Shown: positions 7,547 through 10,757, counted from the first letter of the stretch. The stretch is DNA of 64,000 nt from Gemmatimonadaceae bacterium (GCA_035554995.1 DATMHK010000048.1:207-64206), one strand, 5' to 3'. Notes: generated by a model not told the origin, from the sequence alone. Numbers and translations: made by a program.

Positions 7547-7974
7547 CGGACGCGGTGCGCGCGGAAGGTGCCGGACGCCGCGATTCCCGCGTCCGAGATT
7601 TGAACCCAGCTGCCGGTGAGCGAATCACCCTTTACGACGCCGTTGTGCCGGCGCGTCGTCGCTGGATCGATCACGAGATCGAACTCCACCAGCGATTGGT
7701 CGATCGTGCGGCCGCTGACGACCGCCGCGATGTGACCAAGCTGGCCGCGTGTGTCTTGCTCACTCGCGTCGAGCGTTCCTGTGAAGCGTGTCGTGGTGTC
7801 CTGTGACAGGACGAGCGTTCCGTTGGCAGTTGTCGCGTTACCGGACTGGATGCTCGCGTAGCTCCACTCGCCACGAACAATGACCGTTGCCGGTGCGCTC
7901 TCCGTCGGCGCGCTGAGACACGAAACGGCAACAGACAAAATGGCGAACATCCCGAATGCCCGGCGCCGGCTCAT
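7543..7974 (-). CDS. Small secreted or lipoprotein-like protein, gene E of the operon
   Basis: Start trimmed to MSRRRAFGMFAILSVAVSC..., which gives a signal peptide and an imperfect lipobox. There are ATGA overlaps with both neighbours. No recognisable family. Confidence 0.65.
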   Translation of the reverse strand: MSRRRAFGMFAILSVAVSCLSAPTESAPATVIVRGEWSYASIQSGNATTANGTLVLSQDTTTRFTGTLDASEQDTRGQLGHIAAVVSGRTIDQSLVEFDLVIDPATTRRHNGVVKGDSLTGSWVQISDAGIAASGTFRAHRVR

Positions 7975-10757
7975 GACTTGGGCCGGAAGAGTCGCACTGG
8001 GCGCGTGCGAACCGTCACCGTCACTTGTCGTCGACCCGGAGTTCCATCCAGCTGGATGACCGGGATGAGATCGACAACGAGCGGCTCGCTCGATCCTTCG
8101 AGCTCCGCTGCCAGATCGTATCGCCCGCTCGGGATCGCGTCGAACGTTGCGCGCTGCACCACGCCCGTTCTCACAACCCACGTTCGTCCGGTCGAATCGC
8201 GCAGCGTCAGCGTCGCCACGCCGACGCGCACCGGCGACGTACCCGCCCCGGAGGTCGGCGCCAATGCGACGACCACGTCGATCGCGCTCGTCGGGATGAC
8301 GCCGATCGCGAGCCCGTCGAAACCCTTTCCGAGCGTGCGCGGGCTTTGCAGCCAGCCGTCGGGTAGCGATCGCGTCTCGACTTCCACCGGCCCATTCGCG
8401 CCTGGGGAAAATCGGAACACTCCGCTCGCGTCGGTGACCGCGGATTCTCCGCCGCGCCGAACGACGATCCCGGACACACCGGGTTCACCGGCATCGCGCA
8501 GACCGTTGCCGTTGCGATCCTCGAATACGATCCCGTTCGACAAACGGCGTCCGAGACGCGGGAGGCTCGACGTGCGCTCGAGGCGCAGCGTCGCGATGCT
8601 CGGCGTCGCGCCGTTGGCATCGCGGAACGTGCCGCGTTCCCAACCGCCGACGATGCGAATTCCCTGTCGCAGCCCGATCTCCAACTCGAGTCGTGACGTC
8701 GTGAGCGCGGCCGATCCGTACTGCAGCCGTTGAATTCCGCCACTCACGGTCACACCGGACGCCCGGCCAAAGGGAGCGAGACGCTCAGCATGCGCGTCGA
8801 CCACCGTTTGAATGGGCACGGCGCCGGCTGCGTCGACCGCGCTCTCCAACGAGCCGGCCACACCCATGGCGCCGCCAAGCACGCCGTGGTCGAGACGCGC
8901 GCGATTGGTCAGGCGTCGGCCGCGATCGAGGATCGCGCCGGCGCCGGAGGGCGTCGCCTCGCGATCGATCGACGCATAGCGACTGTCACCGCTCGCGTCG
9001 AACCCGAAGGCGCGCACGCTCACCCGTCCACCGTATTCAGTTTGATCGGAGGAAAACAACCCGCTCGCGCCGCCGGACGAGTAACCCGAGCGACGGAGAT
9101 CGAAACCAAGGGAGAGCCACCGAGAGGCGAGGTACGTCGGCGAGAGCGACCACCCGTCGGAGCCGAGCGAGAGGGACTTTGTGCCGTCGTTTGCGCTCCA
9201 GTAGCTCGCGTCCATGCGAAGTCTCGAAAGACTCTTGCCGGCCGACGCCTGAACGCCGTTCTGCGACGGCGCGAAGGCACCGCTCCCTCCCGGAGCGCGA
9301 AGCAGTCGCACGTCGACATCCGCGCCGGCGATCGGTCCACTCAGGTTCGTGGACAAACCGAGGCCGCTGCCGTCGCGAAAGCGTCGCTCGGCGAGTTGCG
9401 CCGACACGGTCCCGCCGGACCACGGAGTCATCTCGGCACCGACGCCCGATGCATCGAGCTCGCGAGAGACGATGCTCGAGTCTCGCAGATGCGTCACAAA
9501 CGCTGAAAACGTCGTGGCCGAAACGCGCATGCTCGCTATCGCACCGACGAGCGTCGGTGCGTGCCAAACGGTCGCGGTCGAGATAGGCGTGGCGCCGATC
9601 GCCTGCACGTCGGCGCCGCCGGCGCGCCAGCGCAATGAACCGCCGCGGCCGAAGATCGTTTCTCCGGCGAGATCGTTGAAGCCCACGCCCGTCGCGCCGC
9701 CCGTCGCGGCCCACTCGCGGCCGGCGAGCGTGACCGCGTTCGACTGTGACGAATACCCCATCGTCGCCAGCGCCCGCTCCGCCTCGGGGCGGTCGGACAC
9801 GGAAGTGCTGAGCCGACCGTGAATCGAAACGCCGTCGGAGAGCGCGCCGTCGAACGAAACATTCTCCACCGAACGCGGCGCGGCGTCGCCGACGGTGACC
9901 GATCCCACGCCGACTGTCATCGAAGGTCCGGCGACTGACGCGGCGCGCGCGCCGCCCGCGAGCTCGACCAGCGTGGACGCCCGCCCGGCGCTCTCACCAT
10001 GTCGGGCGACAACGAGCGAGACGGTATAGGTCCCGCCCTCCCATCGCCCCGGCACGGACACGCGACCATGTCGCTCGATCGTCTCGCCCGGTGCGACGAC
10101 CGCGGTCGCCGAACCAACGAGCTTCGCGCTCCATCCTTCCGGCGCGTCCACCGACAACGCGACCGTATCGATCACGTTGCCGCGATTAGAGATCTGAAAT
10201 GGAAGATCCATGCGGTCGCCGGCGCGCGCTCCGCGCATCGGTTGGTTCGATGCAACGCGGAGGCCGTGGCGCGGCATGACGTCCAGCTGAACCGGCACCC
10301 GAACGGTTTCGACACCGCTCGCGCCGAAGCGCACGTACGCCACAGTAGCCCGGCCAGCGAGCGCCGTCGAAGGAACGCCCACGGTCAGCAATGCCGCGTG
10401 GTCCGCCGCGGACTGCGCTACGACGCCGCGCTTGCTTCCAAGGACAGTGGCCGAACCCACCGAGACGATCTCATACGACACGTCACCGGCCTGGATGAGA
10501 TCCAGTGGTGCGTCGATGCGAACGAGCCGGTAGCTCCGCGGCTCGGCCTCGTGCACGATCACCGGCTCCAACTCGCGTTCATCGCTCGGGACCGACCGCG
10601 CGTCGCCACGAGTGGCGGTGCGCAGCACCGGAACCGTCAGACTGTCTGGCCGTGTCGCCGTCGGGCGTTGCGCCAGCGCGCTCGAGGCAGACACCGCCGC
10701 ACACACCAGGACGAGCGTCGCCGTTTCGAGCGTCGGCCGCGGGTTGATCGTGGTCAC
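7971..10757 (-). CDS. Large outer-membrane protein with N- and C-terminal Ig-like domains (usher-like by architecture only), gene D
   Basis: 928 aa with signal peptide ...SASSALAQ. Residues about 160-255 are CARDB/NEW3-like (DLPFQISNRGNVIDTVALSV...GGTYTVSLVV). Residues about 280-730 are Gly/Ser/Ala-rich with alternating beta-strand character. Residues about 741-800 look SdrD-B/Cna-B-like (FEDRNGNGLRDAGEPGVSGIVV). Its GTG overlaps the upstream stop. Confidence 0.8.
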   Translation of the reverse strand: MTTINPRPTLETATLVLVCAAVSASSALAQRPTATRPDSLTVPVLRTATRGDARSVPSDERELEPVIVHEAEPRSYRLVRIDAPLDLIQAGDVSYEIVSVGSATVLGSKRGVVAQSAADHAALLTVGVPSTALAGRATVAYVRFGASGVETVRVPVQLDVMPRHGLRVASNQPMRGARAGDRMDLPFQISNRGNVIDTVALSVDAPEGWSAKLVGSATAVVAPGETIERHGRVSVPGRWEGGTYTVSLVVARHGESAGRASTLVELAGGARAASVAGPSMTVGVGSVTVGDAAPRSVENVSFDGALSDGVSIHGRLSTSVSDRPEAERALATMGYSSQSNAVTLAGREWAATGGATGVGFNDLAGETIFGRGGSLRWRAGGADVQAIGATPISTATVWHAPTLVGAIASMRVSATTFSAFVTHLRDSSIVSRELDASGVGAEMTPWSGGTVSAQLAERRFRDGSGLGLSTNLSGPIAGADVDVRLLRAPGGSGAFAPSQNGVQASAGKSLSRLRMDASYWSANDGTKSLSLGSDGWSLSPTYLASRWLSLGFDLRRSGYSSGGASGLFSSDQTEYGGRVSVRAFGFDASGDSRYASIDREATPSGAGAILDRGRRLTNRARLDHGVLGGAMGVAGSLESAVDAAGAVPIQTVVDAHAERLAPFGRASGVTVSGGIQRLQYGSAALTTSRLELEIGLRQGIRIVGGWERGTFRDANGATPSIATLRLERTSSLPRLGRRLSNGIVFEDRNGNGLRDAGEPGVSGIVVRRGGESAVTDASGVFRFSPGANGPVEVETRSLPDGWLQSPRTLGKGFDGLAIGVIPTSAIDVVVALAPTSGAGTSPVRVGVATLTLRDSTGRTWVVRTGVVQRATFDAIPSGRYDLAAELEGSSEPLVVDLIPVIQLDGTPGRRQVTVTVRTRPVRLFRPKS

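Follow-up and report, generated by a model that had tools for sequence, protein, structure and literature searches.

A predicted outer-membrane barrel encoded beside a PapD-like chaperone and pilin-like proteins is a candidate usher equivalent in Gemmatimonadales

A conserved six-gene cassette

The window analysed here is a stretch of 64,000 nucleotides from a Gemmatimonadaceae bacterium (GCA_035554995.1 DATMHK010000048.1:207-64206). It contains a cassette of six genes on the minus strand, which encode, in this order, a pilin-like protein (A192), a PapD-like chaperone (C272), a second pilin-like protein (F169), a protein of 928 amino acids (U928), a lipoprotein (L143) and a third pilin-like protein (B185); all cassette features given below lie on the minus strand. 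Five of the genes show overlaps of 4 nucleotides (GTGA or ATGA), and the cassette is translationally coupled. The order A-C-F-U-L-B is conserved in about 70 Gemmatimonadales genomes at 28-87% identity, and the cassette is complete in essentially each of the about 75 Gemmatimonadales loci that extend far enough. Of the proteins encoded by the conserved cassette, only U928 is large and of membrane type, and it has the position that ushers have; no other candidate pore was found within the cassette. A gene for a secreted glycoside hydrolase is located just downstream (5673-6746). It is lacking from all 82 loci compared and is thus not part of the conserved cassette.

The U928 gene (7971-10757) consists of 928 uninterrupted codons with a GTG start. 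A reading of this DNA made from the sequence alone (here called the sequence-only reading) had given the same coordinates and length, which were borne out, but had left out the strand. Full-length relatives of about 900 amino acids number in the hundreds, with 680 representatives at E<1e-30. Because of these relatives and the conserved synteny, the reading frame is not a chance frame of high-GC DNA, and the gene is real.

Chaperone, pilin-like proteins and lipoprotein

By its sequence, C272 (11260-12078) is a PapD-like periplasmic chaperone. The PapD_N match of C272 itself is just above the Pfam cut-off (E 6.4e-5, 23.4 bits with a cut-off of 23), and the domain was found in 32 of the 43 family members, with a best E of 4e-10. 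Searched against the PDB, the family profile matched the fimbrial chaperones CupB2, YadV, EcpB, PapD and FaeE; the only other match was a Hoc-like phage protein at chance level (E 0.36). P105 is invariant in the family and aligned to the proline of 'TPA' in CupB2, and an invariant proline has been described for the superfamily of PapD-like chaperones (PMC4654587). K161, likewise invariant, lies in 'GVKVYVEP', which is aligned to 'RFKLFFRP', and corresponds to the basic residue of the F1-strand motif. At the thresholds used no PapD_C (PF02753) match was obtained in the family, and the 272 amino acids leave room for two domains.

The first gene of the cassette encodes A192 (12097-12639). The mechanical reading frame reaches 12675, and translation probably begins with MRKL at 12639. 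The AF2 model (pLDDT 89) has as best Foldseek matches subunits of donor-strand fibres, namely TLP-1a, CsuA/B, CfaB, PapE, the Csu pilus, FimA and Caf1, and the top 50 matches are mostly chaperone-usher pilins or other donor-strand fibres (E 1e-3 to 1e-1, TM about 0.45-0.5). B185 (6989-7546), whose position at the 3´ end of the cassette is conserved, is a paralogue of A192 (BLASTP, 35% identity, E 3e-20). F169 (10754-11263), with a GTGA start overlapping the C272 stop, is more divergent, but in hhalign the F family matched the A/B family with 98.6% probability (E 7e-16). Judged by these alignments, A, B and F are one family, and the modelled fold resembles that of chaperone-usher pilins. None of the three proteins had a match in Pfam or NCBIfam, the Fimbrial and SCPU families included, and the family profile matched no pilin in the PDB. 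The sequence-only reading had drawn attention to genes A, C, F and B as the context of U928, and this context proved to be strong, with a PapD-like chaperone, a single pilin-like family and a conserved cassette.

L143 (7543-7974) is a conserved small lipoprotein with a signal peptide ending in Cys19; this Cys is conserved in at least 80% of 45 members. Its gene is found downstream of U in nearly all loci and has ATGA overlaps at both ends. L143 is unrelated to the pilin-like proteins and has no match in Pfam or NCBIfam. It is a candidate for a plug, an anchor or an assembly partner. A very large barrel encoded together with a small conserved lipoprotein is reminiscent of LptD-LptE, in which a 26-strand barrel is plugged by a dedicated lipoprotein, and by analogy with LptE one might speculate that L143 acts as a plug. 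However, the cargo of LptD is lipopolysaccharide and not protein, and LptD has no sequence relationship to U928.

Domains flanking the centre of U928

The N-terminus of U928 looks like a Sec-type signal peptide (residues 1-29, …SASSALA|Q, 10671-10757), with a hydrophobic core followed by ALA|Q, and the 'AQ' at the predicted cleavage site is conserved across the family. AF2 confidence is low here (pLDDT <50 at residues 1-58). Two beta-sandwiches follow. The first (residues 60-160, 10278-10580), seen in the AF2 secondary structure with pLDDT 75-87, has no Pfam family match. The second (residues 165-266, 9960-10265) is a CARDB-like Ig domain of the NPCBM_assoc/NEW3 family (PF10633, residues 179-250, E 1.9e-7).

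The C-terminal part also contains two beta-sandwiches. Domain 1 (residues 740-835, 8253-8540) is of the SdrD-B / CarboxypepD_reg-like type: it matches SdrD_B (PF17210, residues 743-811, E 3.5e-8) and carries the calcium-type motif DxNGNGxRDxGEPG, and SdrD B domains in the PDB were matched by the family profile (E 2e-11). Domain 2 (residues 846-928, 7974-8222) was delimited from the AF2 secondary structure; D854, G857, W860, P876 and Y880 are conserved in it, and in divergent U928 relatives this domain matches CarboxypepD_reg. NEW3 and SdrD_B, present in 27 and 28 of 28 family members, respectively, are the only Pfam matches of U928, with none in the central about 450 residues. Both are above the curated cut-offs, in agreement with the CARDB/NEW3-like and SdrD-B-like domains assigned previously, and the motif strings quoted for these domains were all found in the translation (DLPFQISNRGNVIDTVALSVDAPEGW at residues 184-209, GGTYTVSLVV at 241-250 and FEDRNGNGLRDAGEPGVSGIVV at 745-766).

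Single domains of U928, the SdrD-B domain with its calcium motif and the NEW3 Ig domain, are thus shared with SdrD-type MSCRAMM adhesins and NEW3/CARDB surface proteins. U928 differs from the former, since it lacks an A-domain, SD repeats and a sortase signal, comes from a diderm organism and reaches only 13.7 bits with the SdrD equivalog model (cut-off 2500).

A predicted 24-strand barrel

The AF2 model of U928 has moderate confidence as a whole (pLDDT 70, pTM 0.47). Between the two N-terminal beta-sandwiches and the two C-terminal ones (96 and 83 residues) it places 24 long antiparallel strands (residues 279-731, 8565-9923). According to DSSP these strands are 8-18 residues long and linked as hairpins, with turns of 2-3 residues on one side and variable loops on the other side. 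No sequence match of this region was found in Pfam, NCBIfam or the PDB. It is rich in Gly (14.6%), Ser (13.2%) and Ala (13.0%), as had been noted before, but the aromatic alternation described along with this was overstated, F, W and Y together making up 6.2%. Several strands have weakly hydrophobic faces.

Two features of the family alignments bear on the model. Among 212 family members the spread of insertions and deletions is concentrated in alternate connections between the strands (SD 1.80 versus 0.77, one-sided Mann-Whitney p=0.014), and this is the loop and turn pattern that an outer-membrane barrel should show if its two ends are periplasmic. In addition, adjacent strand pairs coevolve more strongly than non-adjacent ones (0.185 versus 0.107), and this supports a hairpin meander. 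The score of the first and last strand pair, which would adjoin in a closed barrel, ranks only 42 of 299. U928 would insert into the membrane, and its meander may close to a barrel. Since the strand number is even, both flanks would be located on the same side, and the indel asymmetry points to the periplasm as this side.

In a Foldseek search of the PDB, after spurious matches to Ig arrays had been set aside, the best match was FimD in complex with FimC:FimH (3rfz_B, E 8e-7, 801 aligned columns), and BtuB, PirA, OccK, MtrB and LptD (8h1r_D) were matched as well. All non-Ig matches are integral outer-membrane barrels. The TM-scores to barrels are low (0.2-0.43) and FimD is structurally no closer than BtuB; the likeness of the model to known barrels is generic.

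We consider it very unlikely that the centre of U928 is not a membrane barrel at all. In that case U928 would be an all-beta protein that is secreted or stays in the periplasm, for example a large adhesin at the fibre tip or a part of the fibre, and the barrel would be an AlphaFold artefact of a Gly/Ser/Ala-rich meander. The scarcity of aromatics, the weakly hydrophobic strand faces, the pTM, the low TM-scores to real barrels and the rank of the first and last strand pair would fit such a protein. However, a series of 24 consecutive hairpins in which short turns alternate with loops of variable length is a trait of outer-membrane barrels, pLDDT is 80-93 across much of residues 500-730, and the non-Ig structural matches point the same way. 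U928 also contains no pilin domain and is not homologous to A, B and F, and in high-GC organisms Ala, Gly and Leu are common on lipid-facing surfaces.

A second alternative, a genuine outer-membrane barrel with a different job, is also unlikely, if somewhat less so. U928 would then be a channel for other cargo or an adhesin with outward-facing Ig domains, and the pilin-like proteins would be exported or assembled elsewhere. NEW3, CARDB and SdrD-B domains are indeed found mostly on cell-surface or secreted proteins, U928 has no usher homology, its structural matches are generic among barrels, and the glycoside hydrolase gene lies close by. This gene is, however, outside the conserved cassette, and the cassette offers no alternative pore. 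The U928 gene itself is strictly conserved along with those for the chaperone and the pilin-like proteins, to which it is coupled in translation. An even number of strands and the asymmetry of the indels suggest that the flanking domains are periplasmic, and SusC-type transporters provide a precedent for periplasmic CarboxypepD_reg domains on barrels.

Comparison with ushers

FimD and PapC ushers have a 24-stranded outer-membrane beta-barrel as translocation domain. The pore is gated by a plug, a beta-sandwich of about 85 residues located between barrel strands 6 and 7, and the N-terminal and the two C-terminal domains are periplasmic and handle chaperone-subunit complexes. This five-domain organisation has been described (PMC3960871). 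U928 has a comparable length (about 900 residues plus a signal peptide), and its model likewise shows an N-terminal module, a barrel of about 24 strands and two C-terminal beta-sandwiches, which in ushers have about 85-95 residues. Since the usher N-terminal domain, barrel and two C-terminal domains have the same order and nearly the same sizes, the predicted architecture is usher-like. Furthermore, the U928 gene is located between pilin genes and beside the gene for a PapD-like chaperone, as are usher genes.

Several features set U928 apart from FimD and PapC. It has two N-terminal Ig-type domains, one of them NEW3, instead of the PapC_N fold, its C-terminal domains are of the SdrD-B / CarboxypepD_reg type with a calcium-type motif, and its operon holds an additional conserved lipoprotein gene. 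In the AF2 model there is no plug-sized domain inside the barrel, and none between strands 6 and 7. A conserved insert of 52 residues follows strand 3 instead (residues 318-369 at barrel strands 3/4, 9651-9806), and all other connections have at most 12 residues. The insert is predicted to form a helix, a short hairpin and a helix; G334, G354, L363, G365, G370 and G372 are conserved in or near it, and it coevolves weakly with position ~584 across the barrel. It may lie in the lumen or serve in gating. Within the barrel region, conservation is highest in APGGxxAFA, a motif of a predicted extracellular loop (residues 488-496, 9270-9296, pLDDT <50) that is invariant or nearly so in alignments of 28, 101 and 149 sequences.

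The sequence-only reading had proposed an outer-membrane barrel with Ig-like flanks, usher-like in layout and different in domain types, with about 24 strands plus a plug as support for an usher analogue, and the lack of a predicted transmembrane barrel or a central homology to a non-usher family as arguments against it. AF2, Foldseek and Pfam support the proposal: a 24-strand meander is predicted, FimD is the best outer-membrane match and the centre matches no family. The plug is lacking.

In sequence and profile searches U928 shows no similarity to ushers. Usher (PF00577), PapC_N (PF13954) and PapC_C (PF13953) matched none of 28 family members at E<=1, neither U928 itself nor five divergent relatives, and no usher entry occurs in the precomputed Pfam annotations of 30 clusters. 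Models of other large barrels, including Plug, TonB_dep_Rec and LptD, did not match U928 in Pfam or NCBIfam either. With hhalign, the comparison of the U928 family with an alignment of 12 ushers, all of the classical class, gave non-significant probabilities of 7%, 2.4% and 5%. The only aligned region, at 5-7% and likewise not significant, was C-terminal domain 1 of U928 with CTD1 of FimD; the barrel gave no profile signal against the classical ushers.

It is conceivable, though doubtful, that U928 is truly homologous to FimD, PapC and CsuD and has diverged from them to an extreme degree. It would then form a fourth branch of the superfamily, with a different domain put in at the N-terminus and a plug that was lost or moved elsewhere. 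This would change the ancestry of U928 only; the function would be the same. Domain order, strand count and two C-terminal beta-sandwiches of usher size agree with it, as does FimD being the top outer-membrane Foldseek match with coverage of nearly the full length. Two independent family alignments gave the same hhalign region, and CTD1 of both proteins has the pattern TD-x-G … V-x-[VI]-D-x-x-[ST]-LP-D. C272 is homologous to usher-pathway chaperones, therefore the partner machinery may be homologous too, and the three known chaperone-usher classes already have little sequence similarity to each other (PMC4654587). On the other hand, hhalign probabilities of 2-7% are not significant, and the CTD1 motif is a common trait of transthyretin-like domains of the SdrD-B and CarboxypepD_reg types. 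The lack of a profile signal from the barrel, of Pfam Usher matches (0 of 33 members) and of a plug between strands 6 and 7 also argues against homology.

A possible fibre assembly pathway

Chaperone-usher pathways are the textbook route for the assembly of adhesive fibres in Gram-negative bacteria. Their classes have been described mainly in Proteobacteria, and in addition in Cyanobacteria and Deinococcus-Thermus; to our knowledge, the ushers of the classical, alternate and archaic classes are all recognised by one Pfam family. Gemmatimonadota are abundant, poorly studied soil bacteria. It is from gene context only that we infer a function for U928: it is probably the outer-membrane assembly and secretion platform, and thus the usher equivalent, of a chaperone-usher-type fibre system specific to Gemmatimonadales. 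This fibre system would be one not described before in the phylum, and its platform would be usher-like in layout without detectable sequence similarity. The best reading is that the chaperone-usher pathway of U928 is divergent or evolved independently.

In such a pathway, A192, F169 and B185 would be exported through Sec, and C272 would capture these pilin-like subunits in the periplasm. The docking sites for the chaperone-subunit complexes would be the Ig-like domains of U928 in the periplasm, two at the N-terminus (one unassigned and one of NEW3 type) and two at the C-terminus (SdrD-B type and CarboxypepD_reg-like). Subunits would be polymerised by donor-strand exchange, and the resulting fibre would leave through the 24-strand barrel. 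The pore would probably be gated not by a canonical plug but by the 52-residue insert, the adjacent NEW3 domain or L143.

Among known systems, the Acinetobacter Csu pili (CsuA/B-A-B-C-D-E) and Pseudomonas CupE are similar in combining a multi-pilin operon with a chaperone and an outer-membrane platform, and CsuA/B ranks among the structures that the A192 model matches best (6fq0, 7zl4). These archaic (sigma) systems occur outside Enterobacteria, as does the Gemmatimonadales cassette, with thin adhesive or biofilm fibres as the probable product in both. The Pfam Usher and SCPU models recognise the ushers and pilins of the archaic class but not the Gemmatimonadales proteins, and a two-domain tip adhesin like CsuE is not evident in the cassette. 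The archaic class has been reported in Proteobacteria, Cyanobacteria and Deinococcus-Thermus, not in Gemmatimonadota (PMC4654587).

The best Foldseek match of the A192 model was to the TLP-1a/b fibrils (9ikj, 9ikk; E 1e-3, TM 0.48-0.56). Flavobacteriales and Gemmatimonadota both belong to the FCB group. TLP-1a/b are environmental pili from CryoSeek that are assembled by donor-strand exchange, with producer and machinery not identified and the nearest predicted homologue in Flavobacteriales (PMC11494351). The TLP-1 protomer is larger (236 amino acids) and has no sequence-level match to the A192 family. Tentatively, the cassette might represent a fourth, independently built chaperone-usher class, with a PapD-type chaperone, donor-strand pilins, a 24-strand barrel that is not homologous to ushers, has no plug and lies between NEW3 and SdrD-B domains, and a dedicated lipoprotein with a perhaps LptE-like role in gating or anchoring. 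Such a class could build the unassigned TLP-1-like fibrils known from cryo-EM of environmental samples.

The cassette would be distinctive since it is conserved and restricted to the phylum Gemmatimonadota, and since chaperone and pilin fold are retained while the outer-membrane platform is unrecognisable by sequence, has no canonical plug and is accompanied by an additional lipoprotein. If the proposed function is true, it would widen the phylogenetic range of the chaperone-usher pathway and serve as a natural experiment to learn which features of ushers are truly needed for the catalysis of donor-strand exchange and the gating of a 24-strand pore. It would also point to a possible machinery for TLP-1 and other orphan fibrils of the donor-strand kind and give an annotation to several hundred 'hypothetical proteins'.

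Gene cassette and its distribution

U928, the 928-residue candidate usher-equivalent, is encoded by the fourth gene (7971-10757) of a cassette of six minus-strand genes. It is preceded by genes for the pilin-like subunit A192 (12097-12639), the PapD-like chaperone C272 (11260-12078) and the pilin-like subunit F169 (10754-11263), and followed by those for the lipoprotein L143 (7543-7974) and a third pilin-like subunit, B185 (6989-7546). The last five genes are linked by GTGA or ATGA overlaps, implying translational coupling. The case for a chaperone-usher function is a good one: the cassette combines a PapD-type chaperone and three subunits of pilin-like fold with a single large protein, a predicted barrel, encoded where an usher would be.

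A scan with one genome per species returned 178 related stretches, and the full-length ones among the 80 kept all came from Gemmatimonadaceae, Gemmatimonadales or Gemmatimonadota MAGs; the scan patterns were derived from the C-terminal domain, and distant relatives elsewhere may have escaped. Searching with the six window proteins (tblastn) revealed the identical gene set and order wherever the contig was long enough, at 28-87% identity. Five divergent Gemmatimonadota cassettes (loci L074-L077 and L082) retain the order pilin-chaperone-pilin-barrel. Their barrel protein is recognisably similar in the C-terminal domains only, some of them have two SdrD_B/CarboxypepD_reg stretches, and the lipoprotein gene was detected in part of them only; in searches for remote homology they would be useful as a bridge. 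Some Gemmatimonadaceae genomes carry two cassettes or part-copies (loci L028 and L029; L003 together with L006 in MAG DATLPC01), seen either as two chaperone, F169-type and lipoprotein matches on one contig or as two loci per MAG, which suggests paralogous fibre systems.

The search of the operon for promoters and terminators gave nothing above shuffle expectation. Directly after the first pilin gene, inside codons 1-20 of the chaperone gene, lies a 13-bp G+C-rich stem-loop with a T-rich tail (12022-12050, minus strand); the number of terminator-like sites was 5, compared with 4.7 in shuffled sequence. Hairpins that set the ratio of the major pilin to accessory genes are known from chaperone-usher operons.

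Immediately upstream of the cassette, a secreted protein of 204 residues is encoded (12989-13603, minus strand) that had no family match. It ends in VVGLAF with a C-terminal Phe resembling the outer-membrane beta-signal, and it may be a small outer-membrane barrel. The gene is kept upstream only in closer relatives (loci L003, L004, L007 and L052; 47-71% identity). Just downstream of the cassette lies the gene for a secreted 357-residue protein (5673-6746, minus strand) with a match to the Glyco_hydro_cc catalytic core (E 1.2e-5). This glycoside hydrolase is probably unrelated to the fibre system, since none of the related loci contains it. The surrounding stretches (13570-19693 and 2528-4135 on the plus strand, 4217-5398 on the minus strand) contain housekeeping genes identified by reading translations only: consecutive genes for trigger factor, ClpP, ClpX and a Lon-sized frame, as well as an HtrA/DegP-like serine protease with a PDZ-type C-terminus and a histidine kinase. 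Read in this way, they fit a chromosomal rather than a mobile setting.

Chaperone, pilin-like subunits and lipoprotein

The chaperone assignment is based on several lines of evidence. C272 scores 23.4 bits against PapD_N (gathering cut-off 23), and 32 of the 43 members of its family match this model, the best with an E-value of 4e-10. In the PDB, the family profile found the fimbrial chaperones CupB2, YadV, EcpB, PapD and FaeE, and the sole other match was a Hoc-like phage protein at chance level (E 0.36). The invariant Lys161, within GVKVYVEP, aligns with the motif RFKLFFRP of CupB2, and the invariant Pro105 falls on the proline shared by the whole chaperone superfamily (PMC4654587).

B185 is a paralogue of A192, with 35% identity at E 3e-20, and the F169 family is homologous to both (hhalign probability 98.6%, E 7e-16). 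None of the three had a match in Pfam or NCBIfam, nor did the pilin family profile in the PDB. For the confident model of A192 (pLDDT 89), most Foldseek matches are subunits of donor-strand fibres, with E 1e-3 to 1e-1, TM-scores of about 0.45-0.5 and, in most cases, a probability above 0.9: the best structural neighbour in the PDB is TLP-1a/b (9ikj/9ikk), and CsuA/B bound to CsuC, CfaB, PapE, the Csu pilus, the pilin domains of FimH and PapG, FimA, Caf1, PapA and CS17 were matched as well.

L143 shows no relation to the pilins and had no match in Pfam or NCBIfam. Its lipobox cysteine (Cys19) is conserved, as are the motifs G-x-W-x-Y, GTL, DFD, RRH-x-G and SG-x-FR, and in nearly all loci its gene is kept next to the barrel gene and coupled to it in translation. 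To our knowledge, lipoproteins are not usual in chaperone-usher operons. Type V pili were rejected as a model for the cassette, since they use no chaperone and are built from lipoprotein pilins, whereas the lipobox here is found only in the non-pilin L143.

The U928 gene and its domains

The open frame of 928 codons was confirmed, running from a GTG start at 10757 down to 7971 in a window of 62-69% G+C; the coordinates and length in the sequence-only reading were correct, and the minus strand had to be added. All strings quoted there are present in the translation. The frame is a genuine gene: the identical protein is encoded on a 64.5-kb metagenomic contig, 29 further clusters match it over the full length at identities down to 30%, and an exhaustive profile search found 680 representatives below 1e-30, mostly full-length relatives of about 900 residues. 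Database sources name every family member "hypothetical protein" or after its Ig domains only; a cluster look-up of divergent representatives likewise returned just "hypothetical protein", with no taxonomy attached.

As proposed, the N-terminus reads as a signal peptide; it is of the Sec type, with an ALA/Q end at residue 29. Both domain types suggested earlier were recovered above the curated Pfam cut-offs: the CARDB/NEW3-like segment (residues 184-250) as NPCBM_assoc/NEW3 (179-250, E 1.9e-7), and the SdrD-B-like one as SdrD_B (743-811, E 3.5e-8), with the calcium-type motif FEDRNGNGLRDAGEPGVSGIVV at residues 745-766. The central region had been described as alternating Gly/Ser/Ala and aromatic residues; it does contain much Gly, Ser and Ala, whereas aromatics make up just 6%. 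Residues 270-735 had no Pfam match, NCBIfam added nothing to the Pfam result for U928, and PDB sequence searches with U928 and the family profile matched SdrD B domains only. An MSCRAMM adhesin was rejected, as only one domain is in common.

Predicted structure of U928

An AlphaFold2 model was built on an alignment of 28 sequences (mean pLDDT 70.3, pTM 0.47, with pLDDT 80-93 across much of residues 500-730). It predicts a disordered leader (1-58), two N-terminal beta-sandwich domains (60-160 and 165-266), a continuous run of strands joined by hairpins (279-731) and two C-terminal beta-sandwiches (740-835 and 846-928). The run comprises 24 predicted strands of 8-18 residues, as expected from the proposed likeness to an usher, but the plug domain that should accompany them is absent. 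Between strands 3 and 4 lies an insert of 52 residues (318-369, window 9651-9806, minus strand) consisting of a helix, two strands of five residues and a helix; these two strands were left out of the count because they are too short to span the membrane.

The first meaningful Foldseek match in the PDB was the usher FimD with FimC:FimH bound (3rfz_B), at E 8e-7 over 801 aligned columns, followed by BtuB, OccK8, PirA, PfeA, LptD, MtrB and the translocation domain of FimD on its own. TM-scores against these barrels were low (0.2-0.43), and therefore the comparison supports a large outer-membrane barrel, not specifically an usher. The top seven rows, Ig-array proteins of ciliary complexes (central apparatus, 9ijj and 7sqc), were discarded as artefacts on account of TM-scores of about 0.1 and rmsd values of 40-122 Å. 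TonB-dependent receptors and SusC-like transporters were rejected because the plug and receptor models found no match, and autotransporters and inverse autotransporters because these have a 12-strand barrel at one terminus.

Family-averaged hydrophobicity alternates along the strands, with weak hydrophobic faces for those in 500-630. Mean-field DCA, noisy with 211 sequences (Neff 167), scored sequence-adjacent strand pairs higher than non-adjacent ones (0.185 vs 0.107), which supports a hairpin meander; the first and last strands, whose pairing would close the barrel, scored 0.151 at the same noisy depth (rank 42 of 299). Among 212 members, length varied more in odd-to-even connections than in the others (SD 1.80 vs 0.77, Mann-Whitney p=0.014), with maximal insertions of 36-73 residues vs at most 32. 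Such an asymmetry between loops and turns is a trait of outer-membrane barrels. Combined with the 24 predicted strands, it would place the N- and C-terminal domains in the periplasm, whereas the 52-residue insert and the motif APGGxxAFA (488-496), which is invariant, would lie in extracellular loops. Few parts of U928 are as strongly conserved as this insert and this motif. The highest non-adjacent DCA coupling joins the insert hairpin (341-354) to the turn at residue 584 (about 9004-9006), through the pairs 344-584, 349-584 and 353-584; at z about 4 and Neff 167 this is a weak signal. Since position 584 would lie roughly on the opposite wall of a 24-strand barrel, the insert could fold into the predicted lumen.

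Comparison with ushers

Ushers are known from the PapC and FimD structures to have 24 strands and a plug, whose position these structures define, and the plug domain is one of their defining structural features. The model of U928 lacks one. Its predicted layout nevertheless parallels that of an usher, as had been claimed: a periplasmic N-terminal module, a pore of about 24 strands and two C-terminal beta-sandwiches of about 85-95 residues. The usher itself is a five-domain protein (PMC3960871).

At E<=1, Usher, PapC_N and PapC_C matched neither U928 nor any of 28 family members, and the five divergent relatives gave no match to these models either. Since a FimD homologue search gave only sequences at least 78% identical, E. 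coli K-12 and plasmid entries supplied nine diverse ushers for an alignment of 12 (FimD, Caf1A, MrkC, CstB, an Afa-type usher, PefC, FaeD, FedC, a Pantoea usher and three FimD orthologues). This set was compared by hhalign with the family alignment in three versions, at probabilities of 7%, 2.4% and 5%. The only aligned stretch, found twice, pairs the SdrD-B-like domain of U928 (about 740-860) with the first C-terminal domain (CTD1) of FimD (705-808). Both contain the pattern TD-x-G … V-x-(V/I)-D-x-x-(S/T)-L-P-D, which is widespread in transthyretin-like domains too; the resemblance is suggestive, below significance. U928 may descend from a true usher by extreme divergence, to which we give a fairly low probability, or may have arisen independently as an usher analogue. 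U928 is thus no demonstrable member of the usher family, and we class it as usher-like in function and layout, because sequence membership fails and the plug is absent.

Proposed pathway and significance

We consider it probable, with some reserve, that U928 acts as the usher-equivalent of a chaperone-usher-type pathway. A192, F169 and B185 would be exported by Sec and captured by C272 through donor-strand complementation; the chaperone-subunit complexes would then dock on U928 at its Ig-like domains in the periplasm, donor-strand exchange would take place at the pore entrance, and the barrel would extrude the fibre. Candidates for the gate are the 52-residue loop insert, the NEW3 domain just before strand 1 or the lipoprotein L143, which would then resemble LptE in LptD. 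CTD1 of U928 may be stiffened by the calcium-type motif with which it begins, as SdrD B domains are.

TLP-1a is a donor-strand fibril from pond water discovered by cryo-EM, an orphan as regards both its producer and its assembly machinery, and its closest predicted homologue is from Flavobacteriales (PMC11494351). Fibrils like TLP-1 might be built by machinery of the type encoded in this cassette. Known chaperone-usher classes are reported from Proteobacteria, Cyanobacteria and Deinococcus-Thermus (PMC4654587), and our full-text literature searches found no paper linking Gemmatimonadota with such systems. New here would be a pathway of the chaperone-usher type whose platform is unrecognisable and has no plug, and which includes an additional lipoprotein.
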